DNA from: an uncultured Nitrososphaerales archaeon
Lineage (GTDB): Archaea; Thermoproteota; Nitrososphaeria; Nitrososphaerales; Nitrososphaeraceae
Direction of reading: 5' to 3'
Length of the DNA: 64,000 bases
NCBI GenBank assembly: GCA_963695855.1
Contig: CAVOHZ010000003.1
Span: forward strand, 420,619-484,618
Each line of letters starts with the position of its first letter. Positions within the stretch are counted from its first letter, which is position 1. A program made the translations under genes and the position numbers. Positions 4,656 to 56,129 of this stretch are shown piece by piece. The notes below the pieces were generated by a model. It made no database searches, was not told the origin of the DNA, and worked only from the letters and a program-made list of their open reading frames with translations.

Positions 4656-5462
4656 CCTTAAAAATCTAAGAAGAACCAGATTTAAAAATTTATGGATAAA
4701 ATACCGTTTATTAAATAATCAATATATGAAGATCGATATCATATGAAAATAGACCATAAATAAAACAAGATTTCCTTGCTGAATTTCTTGTTTAAAAAGT
4801 TCATAGATAATTAATTATAAAATTGAATACTAACTGGTTTTCAAATTTTTTCATACGGAATTCTTTTCGATAATATATAGGCATAAAATTTTGCATAAAG
4901 TTCAATTAAATCTTTTTTATCAATATTGAATAAAAGAGAACATACAATCGTTTTAAAAATAGGAATAAACTATTTTATTATCATTCTTTAATATATTAAT
5001 AGTGAAAGAAAAGGTAGATGCTTTGGCATCGACCGTTCTATCATTAAATGATTGCAACAGGATATCATTTGAAATTTGCTATGGATGTGTGAATTAAATT
5101 TGCAAATAGATCTATATTCAATTTTATTGTGTTTGTTCAGGATTTGTTTCGACCGGAGCTATGACATTTATAGAAATCCCATTTTGGAAGAGATGGGAAT
5201 TAACTGGTATCTTAGATTGGCACGAAAATCAGGGCTTGAAATGCAAATTTTTAAGGCTTCCACCTAGCAGTCTTCATTTCTGGGGTATATTTCTGTTGCA
5301 CTTTGTAAACGCAAGTCTTGGCGGATTAGGACTATTATTTGCTTTAATATTTTTTCCTTCTTTAACAGAAAATCCTTTAATGGCATTGTGGGTGTTTTAC
5401 GGTTTTTTTCTATGGATTCTTTTGAACATTTTGAATGTTGAATAACTATTTACTCTCAGCAT

Positions 5463-28980: not shown

Positions 28981-29525
28981 ATGATAATAGGTACTCTAAA
29001 AGCAGTGATTTTACCTTTTAATAGAATTTACTTTTAGAGTTAAAATACAGATATAAAATAAAAATTGGCCTCTCTGGATCCAGGAAGTTTCAAGCGTATA
29101 CGTTCTGCATTTGTCACATATTCACATACTGAAAATAGATTTATTCTGCCAAAGTTGAGAAAGAGTAACAACCAGTAGCTCAAAAAATGAGGAGATTTAT
29201 TCTTGACCATTTATCGTATCAATTAATATTGTTGGTTAAATCTGCACAAGAGAAAGAGAAAAAAAGTAGATCGAACTAATAATATAAATTATTTTTTAAA
29301 TATGGGGCCAGTGGTTTGTGAAACAAATTTGACCTAAAAAATTTATTTTTAATTAGCATTATATATTTCATTATAAAAGTGGGTTCATATGTCTTCGTAG
29401 TCAAATCAGTTGGATTTGAAGCCCTCCATAAAGTGAGACCATTCAATACTTTAAACATCGTTTAGACATAGATTTGAGATAAAAACATATATTCAGTCCT
29501 TACCAATACGAATAGTAATAGTGAT

Positions 29526-29720
29526 ATGCAGAATCTAGAATCTAGCTTATTAACAATATCCTTCAATTCCAGAGAGGAAGAAGTAGAAGGATTCTATGTA
29601 TTATTGTCAAAAAAAGTTCCTATAAAGAGTACAGGACAACACAAATATACTATAAATAGGAACTATATTAAAATTTTAGATACCATGGGTATAAATTATA
29701 CAATTCAAAAGAATCCATAA
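29526..29720 (+). CDS. Small hypothetical protein, first gene of a pair
   Basis: 64-aa ORF 13 bp upstream of 29734. Confidence 0.65.
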   Translation: MQNLESSLLTISFNSREEEVEGFYVLLSKKVPIKSTGQHKYTINRNYIKILDTMGINYTIQKNP

Positions 29721-29733
29721 AATTCAATGTAAG

Positions 29734-30060
29734 TTGTCATCAGCCTCAATCAGAGTAGATATTTATTTACCGTTATATTATAACAATAAACAACCAGTAG
29801 AAAAATCAAAATTTGTTGACACTTTTAATGAATTAGTTGAAATGTTTGGCGGATGTTCTGCTGATGAACATACTATACTTGGAAGTTGGAAGGATCCAGA
29901 TTCAGACATTTTGTATAATGATGAAAATACGATATACCATGTTATATCTGAAGATCGAAAAGAAAATAGCAATCTTTTAAGTGGATATAAAGAGAAGTTA
30001 AAAGAGAGGTTTCGACAAAAAGAAATAATGATGTATTATATCAGTGTGAATAGATTTTGA
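29734..30060 (+). CDS. Ferredoxin-like/PII-like small protein (DUF3574-like)
   Basis: IYLPL.YN...PV....F.....EL...FGG.S......G.W......Y.D....LK.RF.Q.EI. Confidence 0.65.
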   Translation: MSSASIRVDIYLPLYYNNKQPVEKSKFVDTFNELVEMFGGCSADEHTILGSWKDPDSDILYNDENTIYHVISEDRKENSNLLSGYKEKLKERFRQKEIMMYYISVNRF

Positions 30061-30263
30061 AAATAGTAAGTATAATAACAAATAATAGCATATAATTATT
30101 TGATTTTCATAGTTCTTCTTAATAAAACAATACTTTTTAATTTGCTTAATAAAATAAAATAAAGATTAATAAATATATAATATAAAAAATACCATAGATT
30201 ATTAGACTAGGTTATATATTAAAACCTAGTCGATTTTTGGTTACTGCTGGTATTATTTCTAAA

Positions 30264-30992
30264 TCATTGTCTATTAACTGATTGTCCTACTGATTTTATG
30301 TAACTAGTATTTGTTCTTACCAAATCCTTTAGATTGTCGCGTGTTTGTTCTAATGCTGTATTATATATCCTCATATTTGATGCTAGAGCGTTGTTTATGA
30401 GATTACTAGTGTTTAACAGGTAACTTGTAAAGTTATTGACTAGTACTGCGTGGTTTTCAACAATTTTCTGTGGATTATACCAGTCCCATAGTCCGGTGAA
30501 GTTCACACCACTGTTTTTGTCTACTTGTTGTGATTGAAAAGAGTTTATTACTTCTTTTTCTGCTTCAATAAAGTCAGAGGCAATATCTTTTATAGTTTGA
30601 ATGGTTTGTTCTTGATATTCAGCAATACGTTGTGTATATTTTGGAATTTCTCGTGTAGCTTCATCAGTAGTTCTCTTTATATTATGTAAGGTGTTGTCGA
30701 GTGTCTTGTTTATTACATCTTGTTGTTGATTTAAGGTGTTATTAAAGTCTCTATTTGCTCTTTCATTGAAATTACTGTGGTCTTTGTTAAATTTAGTTGT
30801 ATTTCTTTCATTAAATTCTTGTTCATTTACAGCTATATTTTCATTTCGTTTTATTTCTTCTTTTGTCGTCACAAATATATATACGTTACTAAGGTATATA
30901 AACGTAGGTAATGATGTCCAGTGAATAGTCATATTGATTTTTGTAGGACCTACATATTTGTATAATTGAAGGTAATATATTTGCAAATACAT
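30264..30992 (-). CDS. Asn/Gln-rich helical protein (possibly phasin-like); true start probably GTG near 30871
   Basis: Amphipathic helical composition, and similarity to the C-terminal domain of 20234-21244. Confidence 0.7.
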   Translation of the reverse strand: MYLQIYYLQLYKYVGPTKINMTIHWTSLPTFIYLSNVYIFVTTKEEIKRNENIAVNEQEFNERNTTKFNKDHSNFNERANRDFNNTLNQQQDVINKTLDNTLHNIKRTTDEATREIPKYTQRIAEYQEQTIQTIKDIASDFIEAEKEVINSFQSQQVDKNSGVNFTGLWDWYNPQKIVENHAVLVNNFTSYLLNTSNLINNALASNMRIYNTALEQTRDNLKDLVRTNTSYIKSVGQSVNRQ

Positions 30993-31445: not shown

Positions 31446-32192
31446 ACTACTTTTGCTTATTGTTTTACGTTAAATACTCTACAACTATTATTTGCACATT
31501 AAATAACGATTCTAGAGGGTATTGTGTGTGCCCTATAAATATATAGATATAGGTATTACGTTTCTAAAGTCAAGAAAGAATGAGTGTAATCCTTTTAGAA
31601 TAAGAAGTTTTTTTAAAATGTATCATTTTTCTTAGCTAACATAAAGTTAGGAATCTGTCCGTACTTTAACCACCAAAATTGTAGTAAATTTATATCTTCT
31701 TAAGGAAACGATTGTCAAACTTTTTCTATTTTAACCAAAAATCTTATCTATTACTGATCTCTTTTTTTCAATAATGTTAAATAACAAGACAGCTAAAAAC
31801 TGTAATAACATTTTTTTAATTTTTGTTAGTATTAGTCTCATTATACCACTTCTGATCTTTTATACACCTATTTCGTATAGTCAAACAGATTCTGATCAGT
31901 TTGTAAGCGATAATACAACCGATGAAAGTTTTGGAGATACCAATGGTGATGGAGTAGTAGATGCTTTGGATGAAGCAACAGCATCAACAACAGAAACAAC
32001 TACTACTGATAATGCATCCTCTACTGATGCTGTTGATGAAATCCAGATGGATACCAATGGTGATGGAGTAGTAGATGCTTTGGATGAAACAACAGCATCA
32101 ACAACAGAGACAACTACTACTGATAATGCATCCTCTACTGATGCTGTTGATGAAATCCAGATGGATACCAATGGTGATGGAGTAGTAGATGC
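31446..32192 (+). repeat. 747-bp inverted repeat, left arm
   Basis: Reverse complement of 38858-39604; no mismatches noticed. Covers 328 bp of upstream DNA plus ~139 codons. Confidence 0.95.
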
Positions 32193-32256
32193 AACCAGTT
32201 CCGGAGATGATCAGCTCCCAGAATCAGGTTCTGATCCTACAACTAGTTTAGAGTAA
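31774..32256 (+). CDS. Secreted acidic DxNxDG-repeat protein; truncated duplicate of the N-terminus of 36430-39276
   Basis: First ~140 aa identical to the 948-aa protein, then a unique ~20-aa tail. Confidence 0.85.
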   Translation: MLNNKTAKNCNNIFLIFVSISLIIPLLIFYTPISYSQTDSDQFVSDNTTDESFGDTNGDGVVDALDEATASTTETTTTDNASSTDAVDEIQMDTNGDGVVDALDETTASTTETTTTDNASSTDAVDEIQMDTNGDGVVDATSSGDDQLPESGSDPTTSLE

Positions 32257-33213: not shown

Positions 33214-33480
33214 AAAGCTCATTGAGTTTGGATACGGTTATTATTTGTGAAGATATTTTTATACAAATTCACTAGTTTAACCTGTTGTTCAAAATTAAAA
33301 AAATGATGATATCTATTCAAGGTAGATGTAAAACATTAATTGGAGCAACTCCATTGATAAGCCTTGGAAGCTCTTCTTGTTTATCAACGAATTCTTGATA
33401 TGTTTCAGAGTAGGAAGACCCTTTTAGGAAGACCTCTTTCCTGAAGGCCAAGGGTCATTATTGTAAAGAATTGTTCTTTT
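33214..33480 (-). pseudogene. Orphan C-terminal domain remnant plus 3' flank, copy A
   Basis: Minus strand TILYNNDPWPSGK/GSSYSETYQEFVDKQEELPRLINGVAPINVLHLP* (stop 33317); homologous to 36152-36420. Confidence 0.7.
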
Positions 33481-33816: not shown

Positions 33817-35433
33817 TTATTTCTTAAATTTTGGAGGATCGTATTCAATGTGGATATGAGGACCTGTTGTTACACCTGAAATAGGTTTATTATGTTCATC
33901 TACAATATCATAATCTTTCTCGAAAAGGCTTCTTAAATCCTTGACGATAGATTTTACTACGTCATTGGATAAATGTTTTGTTCGTAAATCAATAGCTTTT
34001 CCATAATCATGCAATGATTTTCCACCATCGGATCTCTTGGCTGATGTAATTTCACCAGGCAAGCCTGTGTGTTTTATGTATATTGCATTTATATCCGGAA
34101 AAATATTGAGCATTTTATCTGATAGACCAGCCATGTTTATTTTTCCGCAATCCCTACAAATTATTAGTCCACCATATTTATCATCAGCTTTTAAGGAATC
34201 AGCATTTAATTCGGAAGGACTTGTAACTAAGGGATTATTATATAAGTCACATAACTTTGCCCAGGTTTTTTCTCCAACTTTTCCATCTTTTACCAAACCA
34301 TTTTTGCCTTGGAATTGAATAACTGCTTTTTCAGTATTTGGTCCGAATTTTCCGTCTATTGCCTTTGGATCGTGGCCCAATTTCGTGAGAATAGTTTGAA
34401 GATTACTAACCGCAATTCCAGAAGAATCTTTCTTCAATAAGTCCTCAGCAGAATTACATAGAGTTGGTTCTTGGTCTATTGCTGCTAATTTTTCTAGGTC
34501 TGTTGCCCCTGTATCTGTACCAGAATCAGTTGTTGTCTCTGTACCAGCATCAGTTGTTGTCTCTGTTGCGCTTGTATTAGTCTCTGTATCTGTACCAGCA
34601 TCAGTTGTTGTCTCTGTTGTTGTCTCTGTACCTGCATCAGTTGTATCAGTCTCTGTACCTGCATCAGTTGTATCAGTCTCTGTACCTGCATCAGTTGTAT
34701 CAGTCTCTGTACCTGCATCAGTTGTATCAGTCTCTGTACCTGCATCAGTTGTATCAGTCTCTGTACCTGCATCAGTTGTATCAGTCTCTGTACCTGCATC
34801 AGTTGTATCAGTCTCTGTACCTGCATCAGTTGTATCAGTCTCTGTACCTGCATCAGTTGTATCAGTCTCTGTACCTGCATCAGTGGTTGTCTCTGTTGTA
34901 TCAGTCTCTGTACCTGCATCAGTGGTTGTCTCTGTATCTGTACCTGCATCAGTGGTTGTCTCTGTATCTGTACCAGCATCAGTGGTTGTCTCTGTATCTG
35001 TACCAGCATTAGTTGTTGTCTCTGTTGCGCCTGTATTAGTTTCTGGTTCTGTACCAGCATCAGTTGTTGTCTCTGTAACTGCATCAGTTGTATCAGTCTC
35101 TGTAACTGCATCAGTTGTATCAGTCTCTGTAACTGCATCAGTTGTATCAGTCTCTGTACCTGCATCAGTGGTTGTCTCTGTTGTCTCTGTATCTGTATCT
35201 GTTGTATCAACATCAGGTGTTTCTCCTTCTGCTGGTACTTGTTCCTCTGCAAATTGATCTGTTGTATCTGATGAACTAATATTTTCATTGATTATATCTT
35301 CTAAAGGTTCATCAGGTCCCTGACCATATGAAGTAGGAATATAAAACATAAAAAGAGATAGAACAAGACTGGCAAGGATTAAGATAATGGAAGTATAATT
35401 TTTAGTAGTTTTACTATTTAACATTAATAGCAA
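33817..35433 (-). CDS. Secreted peptidoglycan-binding-domain + M15-family Zn peptidase (endolysin-like)
   Basis: Signal peptide; Thr/Asp repeat stalk; PG_binding_1 (LQ..L..LG......[14 protein letters not shown]....L..DG.VG..TW); ITSAKR....SLHDYGKAIDLR...HIHIEYDP (HxxxxxxD...HxH). Confidence 0.9.
   Translation of the reverse strand: MLLMLNSKTTKNYTSIILILASLVLSLFMFYIPTSYGQGPDEPLEDIINENISSSDTTDQFAEEQVPAEGETPDVDTTDTDTETTETTTDAGTETDTTDAVTETDTTDAVTETDTTDAVTETTTDAGTEPETNTGATETTTNAGTDTETTTDAGTDTETTTDAGTDTETTTDAGTETDTTETTTDAGTETDTTDAGTETDTTDAGTETDTTDAGTETDTTDAGTETDTTDAGTETDTTDAGTETDTTDAGTETDTTDAGTETDTTDAGTETTTETTTDAGTDTETNTSATETTTDAGTETTTDSGTDTGATDLEKLAAIDQEPTLCNSAEDLLKKDSSGIAVSNLQTILTKLGHDPKAIDGKFGPNTEKAVIQFQGKNGLVKDGKVGEKTWAKLCDLYNNPLVTSPSELNADSLKADDKYGGLIICRDCGKINMAGLSDKMLNIFPDINAIYIKHTGLPGEITSAKRSDGGKSLHDYGKAIDLRTKHLSNDVVKSIVKDLRSLFEKDYDIVDEHNKPISGVTTGPHIHIEYDPPKFKK
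34625..34882 (-). repeat. 27-bp coding tandem repeat (TDAGTETDT), ~9 perfect units within a larger degenerate array (~34500-35210)
   Basis: Direct inspection. Confidence 0.93.
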
Positions 35434-36151
35434 GAATTGACTATTATAGATAAGGTTTTTGGTTAGAAATATCTCTATGAGTTACCACCCAAATACGTTG
35501 AACTATTTTAGTCGATATTGAGAAGACGGATTTACATCGTATCTTATCAATAACATGCAGTAGATAAGAAGATCTTGCCAGATCTAGATTTGATACAATA
35601 AGGTCACAAATGATTGGATACATATGAGATTTGTAGGATCTTTTACTACAGAATAAGGAACAGATATAGATGAGCAGATGTCAACACTTATAAGAAAAAG
35701 AGAACATTATGAATATGAAGTGGAATTGTGCGATCACCAATAGTGTTTTCGAACAACTGGATCGAAAGACAATAGTAAATATATAATTATCCGTTATGAT
35801 GTAATAATTATGTTACTTATTTGTGAATTTATTGCAAATAAAGATATTATATTGTCTAGAAAAATTGAAAAGTATTTCACTTCGAACTTCTCTTGTGGTA
35901 CATAAAACGGTATAAAAGGTTGAAATAAGGGACATTCTGCTTCCTACGTCTAAGACTTATTTTAAATATCTACCGTTATTCTAAAAACTTATGAAACATT
36001 TTCAATATGTATCTTCTGAAAAACACCAAAGTAACTCTCTACTAATAATTCTTCCATCTCTACGGGTTGTTCTTATTTACAAGTCGTTATTCGGTCTATT
36101 GAATCCATTTCTCTAGAGACAAAATTACTACAATTCTTTTGATTGAAATTC

Positions 36152-36420
36152 AAAGCTCATTGAGTTTGGATACGGTTATTATTTGTGAAGATATTTTTAT
36201 ACAAATTCACTAGTTTAACCTGTTGTTCAAAATTAAAAAAATTATGATATCTAATCACGGTAGATGTGCAACATACAATGGATCGACTCTCCTAACAAAC
36301 CTTAAAATTTGCTTGTTTATCAACGAATTCTTGATAAGTTTCAGTGTATGAAGAACCCGTTCCTACAGCCAACGGGTCATTAATATAAAGAATTGTGCCT
36401 TTCGGCGTGCAGTTAATAAT
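36152..36420 (-). pseudogene. Orphan C-terminal domain remnant plus 3' flank, copy B
   Basis: Minus strand CTPKGTILYINDPLAVGTGSSYTETYQEFVDKQ.../DPLYVAHLP* (stop 36255); 36152-36252 is nearly identical to 33214-33314. Confidence 0.7.
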
Positions 36421-36429
36421 ATCATCAAC

Positions 36430-39276
36430 TTATTTCTTATATTCTGATAAGTAAACCTCTTTGAAGTTTGGATAATTATATTCCCAATGCCATGGTTCCT
36501 GGTTAAATGGATGGAAATTAAAGTCTTTTGCAAATATAACCAGCCATTTATAAATAGACGAACCTCTCATATCCATTATGTTACTAAATGGTGAAGTCCT
36601 TCCTTCACCTGATACTGTTTTCCCATCCTGTTTAACTTCGAATTTTTTAATTCCGTCACTCATTTTTAAGTCAGCAGTTACTCCCAATGCATGCGAAATT
36701 CCTCCAATGGCATTAGGATTTTTTGCCTGCTCTGCTCTTTTCTCATCCAGGACTGGATCGCGATATGTTGAGAATGGAACAATTTCAATTCCCTCTCCTT
36801 TTGCAGCGTCCTGCATTTTAATAAACGAATCTACTACATGTTTGTTCATTCTTTGTTTGGAATAACCCGGAATTTCCTTAGTCTGCTTGTAAAAATAATC
36901 ATTATATTTTGTTTTGTCTTTTTGATATTCAGAGTTAGGTAGTATAGCATTTGATAGATGTGTAACACGATCTTCCAATATTATATTATTTAATTGATTT
37001 ACTAGTTTTCGAGTTTCACCTTCGTTAGGTCCTATAGGGTTGCCCAGATAATCAGATGGATCCCATTTGAATTGTTTGAATGCCTGTCCATCTTTTAATA
37101 AATCCAGAGTAGATACCTTTGGGTTTTTAACAAAATTGTTTAATATCAATTCTCTATGTTTATTCTTGTCAGTAGAAGAGGTACATATCTTTTCAATTGT
37201 TATCTTATCTGCAATTCCTGTTAGTGCTAACTTGTTAGAAATCTGAAACAATCTTACAGACATCTCCGTCTTAGGTCCAAATTTCTTTAAAGTTTGATCT
37301 AGTTCATATGGATAATATCCGAGTTCTTTAAGGTTTTTTTGAAGCATAACGATCTCGTCTCCTGAATCCCCTGATTTTAATTCAGGTTTTGTAATTTTAC
37401 AGATTTCTCTTTCTCCTACCTGTACAACATCACCACCAGGAGTAACACCACTTCCACTTCCAGGAGTAACACCACTTCCACTTCCAGGAGTAACACCACT
37501 TCCACTTCCAGGAGTAACACCACTTCCACTTCCAGGAGTAACACCACTTCCACTTCCAGGAGTAACACCACTTCCACTTCCAGGAGTAACACCACTTCCA
37601 CTTCCAGGAGTAACACCACTTCCACTTCCAGGAGTAACACCACTTCCACTTCCAGGAGTAACACCACTTCCACTTCCAGGAGTAACACCACTTCCACTTC
37701 CAGGAGTAACACCACTTCCAGGTTTACCTGATTGTGAGGTCGAATCTGTACTCTTTGCAGGTAACTTATCCTCTTCATAATCTTTCATGATTGCATCTAC
37801 AGCTGCGTCTGAATTCTTTTTCTCTTCATATAGTGCACATAACTTTGCCCATGTTTTTGCTCCAACTTTTCCATCTTTTACCAAATCATTTTTGCCTTGG
37901 AATTGAATAACTGCTTTTTCAGTATTTGGTCCGAATTTTCCATCTATTGCCTTTGGATCGTAGCCCAATTTCGTGAGAATATTTTGAAGATTACTAACCG
38001 CAATTCCAGAAGAATCTTTCTTCACTAATTTCTCAGATGGATTACAGACGATCTCTTCCTCTGGGAATGGGTCTTTTGTATCCACCTTTATGGGTGGTTC
38101 TTGGTCTGTTGCTGCTAGTTGTTCTAGGTCTGTAGCTACTCCTGGTTCTTGCTCTCTTGCTGCTAGTTGTTCTAGGTCTGTAGCTACTCCTGGTCCTTGG
38201 TCTGTTGCACCTGTATCAGTTGTTGTCTCTGTTGCACCTGTATCAGTTGTTGTCTCTGTTGCACCTGTATCAGTTGTTGTCTCTGTTGCACCTGTATCAG
38301 TTGTTGTCTCTGTTGCACCTGTATCAGTTGTTGTCTCTGTTGCACCTGTATCAGTTGTTGTCTCTGTTGCACCTGTATCAGTTGTTGTCTCTGTTGCACC
38401 TGTATCAGTTGTTGTCTCTGTTGCACCTGTATCAGTTGTTGTCTCTGTTGCACCTGTATCAGTTGTTGTCTCTGTTGCACCTGTATCAGTTGTTGTCTCT
38501 GTTGCACCTGTATCAGTTGTTGTCTCTGTTGCACCTGTATCAGTTGTTGTCTCTGTTGCACCTGTATCAGTTGTTGTCTCTGTTGCACCTGTATCAGTTG
38601 TTGTCTCTGTTGCTGTTGCTTCATCCAAAGCATCTACTACTCCATCACCATTGGTATCCATTTGGATTTCATCAACAGCAGCAGCAGAGGATGCATTATC
38701 AGTAGTTGTATTTGTTTCTGTTGCTGTTGATGCTTCATCCAAAGCATCTACTACTCCATCACCATTGGTATCCATCTGGATTTCATCAACAGCAGCAGCA
38801 GAGGATGCATTATCAGTAGTAGTTGTCTCTGTTGTTGATGCTGTTGTTTCATCCAAAGCATCTACTACTCCATCACCATTGGTATCCATCTGGATTTCAT
38901 CAACAGCATCAGTAGAGGATGCATTATCAGTAGTAGTTGTCTCTGTTGTTGATGCTGTTGTTTCATCCAAAGCATCTACTACTCCATCACCATTGGTATC
39001 CATCTGGATTTCATCAACAGCATCAGTAGAGGATGCATTATCAGTAGTAGTTGTTTCTGTTGTTGATGCTGTTGCTTCATCCAAAGCATCTACTACTCCA
39101 TCACCATTGGTATCTCCAAAACTTTCATCGGTTGTATTATCGCTTACAAACTGATCAGAATCTGTTTGACTATACGAAATAGGTGTATAAAAGATCAGAA
39201 GTGGTATAATGAGACTAATACTAACAAAAATTAAAAAAATGTTATTACAGTTTTTAGCTGTCTTGTTATTTAACAT
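36430..39276 (-). CDS. Secreted protein: DxNxDG repeats + Thr-rich stalk + two PG-binding domains + VanY-like (M15B) D,D-carboxypeptidase
   Basis: Signal peptide; 5x DTNGDGVVD; two PG_binding_1 units; F..MQDAAK.EGI.I...STYRD...[10 protein letters not shown]...WL...A..F.F.PF..EPWHWEY (SxHxxxxAxD- and ExxH-type motifs). Confidence 0.92.
37436..37722 (-). repeat. 24-bp coding tandem repeat (GSGSGVTP) x~12, linker between the PG-binding domains
   Basis: Direct inspection. Confidence 0.95.
38200..38610 (-). repeat. 27-bp coding tandem repeat (TTTDTGATE) x~15
   Basis: Direct inspection. Confidence 0.95.
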
Positions 39277-39604
39277 TATTGAAAAAAAGAGATCAGTAAT
39301 AGATAAGATTTTTGGTTAAAATAGAAAAAGTTTGACAATCGTTTCCTTAAGAAGATATAAATTTACTACAATTTTGGTGGTTAAAGTACGGACAGATTCC
39401 TAACTTTATGTTAGCTAAGAAAAATGATACATTTTAAAAAAACTTCTTATTCTAAAAGGATTACACTCATTCTTTCTTGACTTTAGAAACGTAATACCTA
39501 TATCTATATATTTATAGGGCACACACAATACCCTCTAGAATCGTTATTTAATGTGCAAATAATAGTTGTAGAGTATTTAACGTAAAACAATAAGCAAAAG
39601 TAGT
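38858..39604 (-). repeat. 747-bp inverted repeat, right arm
   Basis: Reverse complement of 31446-32192. Confidence 0.95.
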
Positions 39605-39672
39605 CATGATCTGGCTTTTAAGCTGTTTGAAAACCTTTTTTAGGATTATCTAAAATAACATCATATAGTGAA

Positions 39673-40449
39673 TTGGACGAAGTTAGTGAAGAAGTGATTG
39701 AAGATGAAGTAAAAATTCCAATTTCTGTACATGATACATATGAAAATAAAGATAAAATGTTGAAAGGAGTTTTCTCGATTCCTCCTAATTCCAATTTCCT
39801 GGTTATCTTTGTTCATGGTAGCGGAAGTGGAAAGAATAGTGAGAGAAACAAGTATCTTGCCCAATTTTTTAACAAGGATGGTCTTGCAACATTACTTGTA
39901 GACCTACTTACAGAGGATGAAGTGAATTCAGACATAAGAACAGAAAAAATTAGATGCAAAATTCCTGGACTTGTATTAAATAAGTTCAATATTGGGCTCC
40001 TGACAAAAAGAATCATATCAATAACCGACTGGATGATAAGAAATACTAGATTACAAGAAAAGAGATTTTTGATTGGATACTTTGGATCAAGCACAGGTTC
40101 TACAGCAATGATAGAAGCAATAGGTCATTTAGATTCAATTGTAGAAGGTGAAGATCTCATCAGTGTTTTAGTTTCAAGGGGAGGAAGAGTAGATTTGACT
40201 AAAGAGGATTCGTTGTCCAAAATTAAGATTCCCACTCTTTTTGTCATTGGACAAAGAGATCATAAATCAATTATTGAAAGTAACAAAAAAGTATTAGAAA
40301 AAATAAATTCTGAAAAAAAGAAATTGGTTTTATTGGAAGGTGCGTCCCATCTATTCGAGGAACCAGGTAAAATAGAAGAGGTGGCAAAAATAGCATCCGG
40401 ATGGTTTAGATGTTATTTTCAGATAAAAGCAAAATCGATTCAAGTTTAA
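39673..40449 (+). CDS. Alpha/beta hydrolase (dienelactone hydrolase-like)
   Basis: VIFVHGSGSG..S.RN, GYFGSSTG, VSRGGR.DL, GASHLFEEPG. Confidence 0.92.
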   Translation: MDEVSEEVIEDEVKIPISVHDTYENKDKMLKGVFSIPPNSNFLVIFVHGSGSGKNSERNKYLAQFFNKDGLATLLVDLLTEDEVNSDIRTEKIRCKIPGLVLNKFNIGLLTKRIISITDWMIRNTRLQEKRFLIGYFGSSTGSTAMIEAIGHLDSIVEGEDLISVLVSRGGRVDLTKEDSLSKIKIPTLFVIGQRDHKSIIESNKKVLEKINSEKKKLVLLEGASHLFEEPGKIEEVAKIASGWFRCYFQIKAKSIQV

Positions 40450-40899
40450 TAGCGGGTTATCAATGAATGAATTATTTGAGACAAGTGTCAAAGCTCGTTG
40501 GAAGATGAACTGAGCAGACTGCATGATGCCAATTACCATCATTATATGACTTTGAAGTGCGTTAGGACTTTCTATAATCTTAATCTCCTGATAGGTGCAC
40601 CATGTTATGATTGCTTATGCATTGCTAGTATATTGTCCCAGAAAGACTGAATTTCTCACGGGTTCGGTGGTATCCGTCATGCTAGCACTCTAATAAAAGA
40701 ATCCTAAGTAGGGTAAATAAAACAAGTTTATAAATTTTATGTATCGCTGTTATTGTAGATTTATTTTTAAATTCTGATATCTTCTCACGAGATAATAATG
40801 CCTTTCTTTTATGAAAATACATTTGAGAATTTCAATCCTAGAGGAGGCTCAGAATGCTCGGTTCCAAATTTAAGGGTCGACAGGGAACAATACCAATTT

Positions 40900-42630: not shown

Positions 42631-43748
42631 AGATCAGCAATTGTATGTAGATATTATTAATTGTTGTTCTCATTACTTGAATGGAATATCGATATATGTT
42701 GATATTTAATAAAGTATATTTAACCTTCCTATCAACAGAGGTTAATCAAACAATTCAGTTTATAATATCATTAACCTAATAATTTTTATGGCTCACTTTA
42801 ATATCTAATTCTCTTGTTTTTTATATCAACTGCTACAAGATATATCTTCAGGTTCATCATTTAACAGGAGAGTTATGGTATTCGTCAGGTTCACATCATA
42901 GGATTAAAATTGGTTAGCTAATGGGCTCAATTCAAATTCAAGATATATACGGTTAAAAAAATATAAATCAATATTATTAATTTTAGTTACATATTTTTAC
43001 CACTTTACTATTTGATAGTAGAGATGACTTGACACTGCTTGATTGATAAGCAGTGGAACTTTCTAGATATCTCGTAAGTGTTGAAAATATTTTTGGTGAA
43101 CCCTTATCAGGAGATGCAAGACGACCCTCATTACAGTCATACAATATTGTTTTATTATGGAGATTTGCATTACTGGATGATACAGTATTTGAAAGACACA
43201 ATAGAAAGTTTTGATGACTACCATCCTTGTATGCAACAGAAATGTAATCTATTTCACGTACATAACTGGATACAATTCTTTGTTTCAATGTATAATGATA
43301 CTATAGCAAATAATAAGAATTATTTTTGATTAAAGGAGGTGGATATTAACTTAATTTAGCAGAGCCGAAATATAATTTTATCATGCTTTATTGGCTTCGG
43401 ATATGTTAAATTCAAACGTGAAAGATGTAACATAATAAAAGGATATTTATTTGAATTAGTTAAAAAAATAATAGTACAAGAACGTATTTGTTATCATGTT
43501 ATTTTAAATACAAATTTGCTAATTGTTACATACTCGTACCAATATATTCGCTAATTGTTACATCCTTGTATCACAATACCTTTATTGTTATTATTTAATT
43601 ATTATATAAATGAAAACTAGACAATATTCTATACAGAAAGGATTATTCCTTTTTCAAAAAATTCTATATAATGCTTTGTATAATGTTTTGAAAACAAGTC
43701 AACATATACAATTTTATAAATAAGATTATCAAAATGGTGAAAAAATAG

Positions 43749-56040: not shown

Positions 56041-56129
56041 CGGGTTCGGTGGGATTCGGACCCACGACATTTTAACCCTCGAAAGACTGGTTAAGAGCCA
56101 GACGCTCTACCTGGCTGAGTTACGAACCC
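56041..56129 (-). tRNA. tRNA-Lys(CTT) with a 15-nt non-canonical intron (~56072-56086), no encoded CCA
   Basis: GGGTTCG acceptor pairs with CGAACCC; D arm CTCAGCCAGGTAGAG; anticodon arm TCTGG-CTCTTAA-CCAG|A; T arm GTGGG-TCCGAAT-CCCAC. Confidence 0.92.

Follow-up and report, generated by a model that had tools for sequence, protein, structure and literature searches.

Two neighboring genes of an uncultured archaeon of the Nitrososphaeraceae (assembly GCA_963695855.1, contig CAVOHZ010000003.1), designated gene A and gene B here, encode long proteins in which a hydrophobic leader and a Thr-rich stalk precede peptidoglycan-binding domains and a putative C-terminal zinc peptidase. They lie in a window of 64 kb, the whole stretch of DNA that was analyzed, which forms the terminal part of a 484-kb contig in a genome of 3.55 Mb (11 contigs, ~31% GC; completeness 99.87%, contamination 1.61%). 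Archaeal AmoA is encoded on a different contig of the same genome (E 1.4e-117), close homologs of the studied genes are labeled Nitrososphaeraceae or Nitrososphaerales in public records, and libraries with relatives of the locus come from soil and rhizosphere; by its gene content the host is a soil ammonia-oxidizing, AmoA-encoding archaeon. An earlier note, made from the letters of this DNA alone, had proposed that the two genes encode secreted peptidoglycan hydrolases in an organism that has no peptidoglycan.

Gene A (33817-35433) is an open reading frame (ORF) of 538 residues when read from a TTG, although its start is most likely the ATG of codon 4 (35424), because upstream context and leader align with those of the paralogs from there. 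It is encoded on the minus strand, as is gene B, and the coordinates of their parts given below all refer to that strand. The leader (residues 4-38, 35320-35424) is the sole hydrophobic window of the protein and consists of a Lys near the start, ~20 hydrophobic residues and Ser-Tyr-Gly-Gln at the end; its 19-residue Kyte-Doolittle mean is 2.43, and all other windows stay at or below 1.6. The stalk that follows (residues 39-325, 34459-35319), delimited by its composition and tandem repeats, is 40% Thr with 86 Asp and Glu residues against a single Lys or Arg, and its DNA is made of ~21 copies of a 27-nt tandem unit. A PG_binding_1 domain (PF01471; residues 340-394, 34252-34416) is recognized by its Pfam match (E 7.1e-18, 65 bits, curated cut-off 23) as well as by its match within the host's own genome. 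The C-terminal part of the protein is the catalytic domain, predicted to be a LAS-fold zinc peptidase.

Gene B (36430-39276) is a longer ORF of 948 residues that runs from a leader through calcium-loop repeats, a Thr-rich stalk, a PG_binding_1 domain, a Gly-Ser-rich linker and a second PG_binding_1 domain to a VanY/LdcB-like peptidase. Its leader (residues 1-37, 39166-39276) is again the sole hydrophobic window (mean 2.61, all others ≤1.6), and in both leaders the hydrophobic segment is preceded by Lys and followed by Ser-Tyr-Gly/Ser-Gln. Each protein therefore has the single hydrophobic N-terminal stretch that the earlier note had read as a signal or anchor helix, and these stretches fit a Sec-type leader or signal anchor. 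Five Asp/Gly-rich, dockerin/EF-hand-like calcium-loop repeats spaced 38 residues apart (residues 55-228, 38593-39114; a 114-nt tandem unit in 4.4 copies) give marginal matches to Dockerin_1 (PF00404; 25.4 bits, cut-off 22.9) and EF-hand_5 (27.4 bits), and relatives of gene B score up to 85 bits with Dockerin_1. The Asp/Asn/Gly loops resemble those of cellulosomal type I dockerins, but the latter form a compact two-helix pair, whereas the loops of gene B are separated by Thr/Ser-rich linkers, and Cohesin (PF00963) had no match in the host genome, although partners of another type are possible; these loops may be calcium-stiffened spacer elements. Downstream of them the Thr-rich stalk (38201-38613) consists of a 27-nt unit in 15.3 copies that are 100% identical. 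Thr makes up 23% of residues 38-228 and 53% of residues 229-365, with Lys and Arg absent from both. The description of very acidic, Thr-rich stalks in the earlier note was apt for both genes. The first PG_binding_1 domain (residues 425-479, 37840-38004) is a Pfam match and is separated by a Gly-Ser-Gly-Val-Thr-Pro linker (37436-37720; a 24-nt unit in 11.9 copies, 100% identical) from the second (37189-37365; 48.1 bits). With 108.4 bits over its two copies (E 1.9e-31), gene B lies, like gene A, far above the PG_binding_1 cut-off, and the domain assignment made for both proteins from sequence was correct. Close relatives range from 550 to 767 residues, as would be expected of a spacer that lengthens and shortens rapidly.

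The last 140 residues of gene A have no Pfam family match, and its catalytic domain (residues 418-538, 33820-34182) was not matched by HH_signal, Peptidase_M15_3 or M15_4 at E ≤ 0.1 or E ≤ 0.05. The domain nevertheless has 140 relatives at E ≤ 0.001 (five at E ≤ 1e-10) among 1.84 billion representative proteins, most of them proteins of 100-125 residues, and when 60 of the 140 were aligned (alignment A1) the same three models touched 27 (HH_signal), 12 (Peptidase_M15_3) and 3 (M15_4) of them at E ≤ 0.05. The zinc-motif residues H475, D482, H526 and H528 are invariant in all 60 aligned relatives and the position of E513 is Glu in 53; gene A thus carries the H-x6-D and H-x-H zinc motifs and the catalytic Glu typical of Hedgehog and DD-peptidase domains. 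A profile of the family found the N-terminal domains of Sonic, Indian and Desert hedgehog as its best matches in the PDB (E 3.5e-8), with the metal motifs aligned. The AF2 model of the domain (predicted local distance difference test score, pLDDT, 86) likewise superimposes best on Hedgehog N-domains (VIA Z 9.5; root-mean-square deviation ~3.0-3.6 Å across 103-108 residues), then on the pneumococcal LD-endopeptidase VldE (Z 8.5) and on a group comprising the endolysins LysECD7, Ply500 and LysB4, MepA, the Streptomyces DD-peptidase, LdcB and VanX (Z 5.9-6.9), such that the top structural matches all have the LAS fold and the named ones other than Hedgehog are all murein peptidases. In a viral library 10 matches were found at E ≤ 0.001, mostly phage proteins annotated as 'Peptidase M15A', the best being a Microviridae protein (E 1.7e-8). 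A single-sequence PDB search gave weak matches, the best of them to an unrelated V-ATPase subunit (E 0.0088), and was set aside; a known phage family was rejected as a home for gene A by sequence, with PHROGs endolysin families matching one of the 60 members and not the domain of the window. Among ten clusters of the gene A family one is named for Desulfovibrio. The M15 label given earlier to gene A was too strong, being backed by fold and motifs and not by a family-model match. By its motifs and modeled fold gene A belongs with the LAS-fold zinc peptidases of Hedgehog/M15A type and lies beyond current family models. An ortholog, P0158, keeps the leader, PG_binding_1 and catalytic motifs and has diverged in the linkers, a pattern of kept domains against diverged linkers that suggests a gene under selection.

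For gene B the M15 label holds by family model, if narrowly: the catalytic domain (residues 808-933, 36478-36855) matches Pfam VanY (PF02557) at 27.6 bits, with a cut-off of 25, and VanY was above its cut-off in three of four close relatives tested (31-40 bits). No PDB match at E ≤ 10 was returned by the single sequence, whereas a profile built from three catalytic-only sequences aligned over the whole domain with LdcB/YodJ of Bacillus subtilis (4ox3; E 5.2e-6) and also matched the Listeria phage endolysin Ply500 (E 8.8e-4). Arg (R839), H-x6-D (H862, D869) and E-x-x-H (E927, H930) align with 4ox3 and are conserved in relatives; in both proteins, therefore, the zinc ligands proposed earlier are intact (H475-x6-D482 and H526-x-H528 in gene A, H862-x6-D869 and E927-x-x-H930 in gene B). 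By these similarities the catalytic domain of gene B is VanY/LdcB-like (M15B). It differs from close relatives in a loop after H-x6-D that is longer by ~8-10 residues. The same spot of the DNA (36591-36707), which encodes the loop 3' of the H-x6-D motif, is where contigs of relatives from soil metagenomes and RNA libraries diverge from the window; in one contig 91 nt replace 115 nt, and the protein of the window is 8-10 residues longer there than close homologs.

The two genes had been described as co-oriented paralogs. Both ORFs exist as described and are on the minus strand; their paralogy, however, is confined to the leaders (51% identical) and the PG_binding_1 parts (74% identity over 103 residues, 93.6% in nucleotides), with the catalytic domains sharing 28% identity over 85 residues (E 0.007). 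A single family for both catalytic domains was considered but could not be demonstrated: profile-profile alignment with hhalign gave a probability of 1.9%, although the metal motifs were what aligned. The two genes look like one delivery frame on which the catalytic ends have been swapped. The segments downstream of the genes (36152-36358, 3' of gene B, and 33214-33421, 3' of gene A) are also alike, with 87.6% identity over 209 nt. A third gene (L018:5322-8225, corresponding to contig C10:1317321-1320224) shares this frame: its product of 967 residues combines three PG_binding_1 domains with a stalk rich in Gln and Thr, its leader is 63% identical to that of gene A, and its promoter-plus-leader cassette is 94% nucleotide-identical to that of gene B, the same identity being found for the region upstream of gene B (39277-39604, minus strand). 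The 340-residue C-terminal domain of this protein (L018:7194-8222) is without a Pfam, PDB-sequence or atlas match, and three of its four database homologs also have PG_binding_1; it is a candidate new wall-acting domain. In the host genome the leader is present at only four loci, namely genes A and B, a truncated ORF described below and the gene on C10. An AT-rich conserved block ~30-50 nt before the ATG is common to A, B and the C10 gene (39300-39330, 35450-35480 and L018 ~5270-5300) and could serve all three as a promoter or regulatory element.

Genes A and B are bracketed by a perfect inverted repeat of 747 nt. Its right arm (38858-39604) covers 328 nt upstream of gene B together with the first 140 codons of the gene, and its left arm (31446-32192) is 100% complementary to it, as confirmed by blastn, and thus holds a promoter region, a leader and the first calcium-loop repeats. 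Since the left arm copies the start of gene B, it gives rise to a truncated ORF of 160 residues on the plus strand (31774-32256) in which the leader of gene B and three calcium loops are followed by an unrelated tail. Arms that are 100% identical point either to duplication in the very recent past or to gene conversion or inversion that is still going on, and because the arms are identical an inversion of the 6.7-kb segment between them would change no protein; an assembly artefact is possible. The outer end of the right arm is the exact start of a 1,054-nt stretch that is 98.4% identical to contig C5, and this point marks a recombination junction. An alpha/beta-hydrolase-like gene at 39673-40449 (within 39604-40652) is present as that 98.4% duplicate on contig C5 and in part on contig C3. 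The perfect inverted repeat flanking both genes and the third gene with the same promoter and leader are newly described here.

The host itself appears to make neither murein nor pseudomurein. Family-model searches of its genome gave no match for Mur_ligase_M, the Transpeptidase domain of penicillin-binding proteins (PBPs) or Transgly, while the same searches gave matches in 10-12 of 14 control genomes, a result that bears out the earlier expectation of a host without murein synthesis. Without Mur ligase, PBP transpeptidase and transglycosylase in a genome that is 99.87% complete, a foreign substrate, as had been proposed, would be the simplest reading. That the locus belongs to this archaeon is indicated by its flanks: of 20 further genomes of the genus, 18 have a homolog of the right-flank gene and all 20 have one of the left-flank gene. 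GC rises to 0.36-0.37 across 34-40 kb of the window, against ~0.30, but this regional rise is due to the codons of the Thr/Asp/Gly repeats; the catalytic and binding parts have a GC of 0.33-0.35 and a GC at third codon positions (GC3) of 0.24-0.28 (0.24-0.26 for the catalytic parts alone), within the GC3 of neighboring genes (0.23-0.32). Genus-wide flanking genes and host-like base composition make a bacterial chimera, the danger raised in the earlier note, an unlikely origin of the locus, which on this evidence lies in native archaeal sequence. As the note had also supposed, no immunity gene is evident: no candidate lies between or beside the genes, and small ORFs of at least 35 residues in both intergenic stretches included none resembling a conserved accessory or immunity gene. 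A tblastn comparison of both proteins with the intergenic DNA found no decayed copy. Neither a delivery system nor uptake or D-amino-acid catabolic genes were found near or linked to the locus.

Reads of relatives were compared over 35200-37430 of the window. In RNA libraries (two runs of one study) short contigs from relatives covered parts of the coding sequence of gene B (36460-37377), and depth was zero over the intergenic bins of 35275-36400, where one DNA run has some. These contigs were discounted as evidence of transcription; they come from relatives, DNA carry-over is possible, and missing cover proves nothing.

Across the family the catalytic domains are rare. In a survey of 121 genomes, the host's own included, the gene B domain was found in two (the host and genome G110, at 34% identity) and in none of 13 other genomes of the genus searched, and the gene A profile also matched two, the second match being a 21-bit fragment. 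The two ORFs are intact, and their orthologs, at 62-80% identity, keep the motifs. PG_binding_1 is more widespread, being present in 18 of the 121 genomes and 9 of 18 genera; among nine PG_binding_1 proteins inspected, from the family and the host genome, two carried an S8 subtilase, one VanY and one a weak reprolysin-like domain, while five had no other Pfam domain. The two subtilase fusions lie at L007 and L012 in family genomes G005 and G022.

Among species-representative genomes the catalytic profile of gene B found 218 relatives, the nearest of which is in a Nitrososphaerales archaeon (52%), followed at 30-39% by bacteria of many phyla, among them Sumerlaeota, Planctomycetota, Verrucomicrobiota, Lysobacter and Brevundimonas. 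Maximum likelihood was used for a quick tree of 64 rows, comprising 56 of the 80 returned loci (24 were left out because at least 115 aligned residues were required), the window, G110 and six metagenome proteins; a root was not inferred. The window falls in an archaeal clade of 8 rows (SH-aLRT 99), another archaeal clade comprises 3 rows (100), and both lie within a mostly bacterial subtree of 36 rows (97) in which the branching between them is without support. PG_binding_1 was above its cut-off in none of seven bacterial relatives, in two of three archaeal ones and in the protein of the window. Since the domain is nested in a mostly bacterial clade, acquisition from bacteria is suggested, and the data fit one or two transfers followed by fusion to an archaeal delivery frame; the direction of transfer we infer from this distribution.

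Taken together, genes A and B probably encode exported modular zinc peptidases that bind bacterial peptidoglycan and cut its peptide part. The observation itself is real and well above chance; its functional interpretation is reasonable but unproven, and we infer from sequence that the proteins are exported and glycosylated, as we do their substrate, the bond that they cut and their role in the environment. Under this interpretation a Sec-type leader would carry each protein across the membrane and then either be cleaved, which would set the protein free, or be kept as an anchor that tethers it; the stalk would hold the binding and catalytic modules off the cell. The long acidic, Thr-rich and probably glycosylated stalk would serve as a spacer, stiffened in gene B by calcium loops; as an estimate, a fully extended mucin-like stalk of 290-400 residues could span tens of nanometers. 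PG_binding_1 would dock the enzyme on murein, and the LAS-type domain would hydrolyze a stem-peptide bond by means of zinc bound by His, Asp and His. The catalytic domains come from different LAS families, VanY/LdcB-like in gene B and Hedgehog/M15A-like in gene A, and would therefore be expected to attack different bonds. As the producer appears to be without murein, the substrate would be foreign and might be offered either by living neighbors, through antagonism or lysis for nutrients, or by wall debris.

Several points weigh against this interpretation. Activity, binding and secretion are predictions for both proteins. In gene A a column that holds His in 43 of the 60 aligned relatives, a few residues before H-x6-D, is a gap, and the deleted His is presumably the transition-state residue numbered H135 in Sonic hedgehog. 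The structural comparison that the earlier note had suggested as a check gave a LAS fold for gene A (pLDDT 86, Z 9.5), but the AF2 model of the gene B domain, made on the 8-row alignment A2, had a pLDDT of 44.5 and was not usable. Relatives of the VanY/LdcB type include non-lytic carboxypeptidases as well as lytic L-Ala-D-Glu endopeptidases, and, by analogy with those that often trim a terminal residue without lysis, gene B need not be bacteriolytic. PG_binding_1, which in this family occurs with S8 subtilases and other partners, may be a general surface or matrix module and not specific to murein. Finally, LAS domains of the Hedgehog type may have substrates apart from murein (Roelink, 2018; PMC6027127).

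One alternative leaves the enzymes as proposed and changes their role: they would scavenge, trimming the stem peptides of wall debris and releasing D-Ala or peptides to be mineralized to ammonium for ammonia oxidation. The closest solved relative of gene B, LdcB, is an LD-carboxypeptidase of the non-lytic type, the organism is a soil ammonia oxidizer whose relatives occur in soil and rhizosphere libraries, and neither a delivery system nor an immunity gene is nearby, all of which would suit such a role. On the other hand, the locus has no linked uptake or D-amino-acid catabolic genes, the phage M15A-type matches of gene A point to lytic enzymes, and a rare, patchy distribution (2 of 121 genomes) would sooner be expected of conflict genes than of a trait central to nutrition. 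Scavenging as the role of these enzymes is accordingly considered unlikely, if worth keeping in mind, and within the interpretation as peptidoglycan peptidases antagonism is somewhat favored over it.

It is improbable, at perhaps a tenth part of the weight, that the proteins serve the archaeon's own surface or extracellular matrix, in which case the ligand of PG_binding_1 would be an archaeal glycan or glycoprotein and matrix proteins would be processed by the LAS domains, as has been proposed for Hedgehog. The variety of unrelated domains to which PG_binding_1 is joined in this archaeal family, the Hedgehog N-terminal domain as the best match of gene A in both sequence and fold, and dockerin-like calcium loops suggestive of surface-scaffold assembly all speak for such a role, but a housekeeping envelope function would be odd for catalytic domains that each occur in just 2 of the 121 family genomes, the host genome showed no cohesin partner, and the structural matches named apart from Hedgehog are murein peptidases throughout. 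That the locus is not functional archaeal biology at all, being a mis-assembled bacterial fragment or the decaying remnant of a transfer, is very improbable, since the raised GC, the perfect inverted repeat, the other duplications around the genes and the truncated copy that might suggest it are set against a GC rise carried by repeat codons with host-like catalytic parts, intact ORFs with orthologs of 62-80% identity and conserved motifs, a promoter and leader 94% in common with the gene on contig C10, elsewhere in the host genome, flanks conserved in the genus, and relatives in the soil DNA of several studies.

If genes A and B are indeed exported peptidoglycan peptidases, a bolder and rather unlikely extension would make them members of a small family of 'polymorphic effectors', in which one conserved cassette of promoter, leader, glycosylated stalk and PG_binding_1 carries interchangeable C-terminal warheads, is shuffled by recombination between near-identical copies, and opens bacterial walls at contact distance to free nitrogen for ammonia oxidation. 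The warheads would then be, again speculatively, the VanY-like domain, the Hedgehog/M15A-like domain and the 340-residue domain of unknown fold on contig C10, with the 747-nt inverted repeat among the recombining cassettes. Were this so, a nitrifier would be acting as an antagonist or predator, and the third domain would represent a wall-acting enzyme of a new class.

Modular peptidoglycan hydrolases of archaea were first described in 2025, and the locus appears to fit that group; what is new lies in host range, architecture and ecology and not in principle. That study found such hydrolases in most archaeal phyla, in 175 of the 3,706 genomes examined, with signal peptides in 32%, a patchy distribution and domain shuffling, and two haloarchaeal enzymes were shown to kill a bacterium (Strock et al., 2025, PLoS Biol; PMC12352652). 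The precedent is accordingly broader than the haloarchaea, to which the earlier note had limited it. Genes A and B share with these enzymes (e.g., Woldo and Danwoldo of Halogranum salarium) a murein-less archaeal producer, the combination of signal peptide, PG_binding_1 and peptidoglycan-cleaving domain (the leader here being predicted and the activity assigned by sequence), a patchy distribution, signs of bacterial transfer and domain shuffling, and the presence of more than one gene per genome (PMC12352652). They differ in that the haloarchaeal enzymes have an M23 domain N-terminal to two PG_binding_1 domains, whereas A and B have a C-terminal LAS domain (M15-type) behind stalks of 290-400 residues; the ammonia-oxidizing host, the repeat stalks with calcium loops and the promoter-leader cassette common to three genes are further differences (PMC12352652). 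The main text of that paper names neither Nitrososphaerota nor M15/VanY, and its supplementary tables may list such genes; in the literature no description was found of peptidoglycan hydrolases in ammonia-oxidizing archaea. Gene B has VanY together with PG_binding_1, but gene A is without a Pfam catalytic match and would therefore be missed by a Pfam-defined screen such as that of Strock et al. (PMC12352652).

Compared with the catalytic families themselves, gene B has in common with VanY/LdcB (MEROPS M15B; LdcB/YodJ 4ox3, Ply500 2vo9) the H-x6-D and E-x-x-H motifs, the preceding Arg and a profile match over the whole domain. It differs in its moderate identity to bacterial relatives (~30-39%), its extra loop of 8-10 residues and its fusion to two PG_binding_1 domains and a long stalk, PG_binding_1 being absent from all seven bacterial relatives tested. 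The domain of gene A shares H-x6-D, H-x-H and Glu with the LAS domains of bacterial Hedgehog-like proteins and of phage 'Peptidase M15A' lysis proteins, and it is C-terminal in a larger protein as in bacterial Hedgehog-like forms; the defining features of this group are taken from one paper (Roelink, 2018; PMC6027127), in the text of which the word 'archaea' does not occur, whereas the host of gene A is archaeal. Unlike that group, gene A has no significant HH_signal, Peptidase_M15_3 or M15_4 match and has lost one family-typical His.

Elsewhere in the window a 1.7-kb segment (29302-30992) is repeated in the genome, with 93% identity to contig C8 and 97% to C6, and contains an ORF of 242 residues on the minus strand (30264-30992) that is without a Pfam match. 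This ORF belongs to a multi-copy family with 20 matches in the host genome, members in all 21 genus genomes searched and in-frame stops in many copies. A short dispersed repeat of ~190 nt (43180-43376) is present on five contigs, in at least 10 places and with 88-92% identity, and a tRNA-Lys(CTT) on the minus strand (56041-56129) exceeds a standard tRNA at 89 nt and may hold an archaeal intron.

In soils the first step of nitrification is controlled by ammonia-oxidizing archaea, which are commonly regarded as peaceful chemolithotrophs. The locus described here provides two enzymes for testing that belong to different LAS families and are built on one scaffold, shows through gene A that Pfam-based censuses miss some archaeal candidates, and adds a third, uncharacterized domain that travels with PG_binding_1. 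If the interpretation given here is correct, wall-directed enzymes would provide these archaea with a direct means to fight, prey on or recycle their bacterial neighbors, and this would bear on models of soil nitrogen turnover and on the partnership between ammonia oxidizers and nitrite oxidizers.

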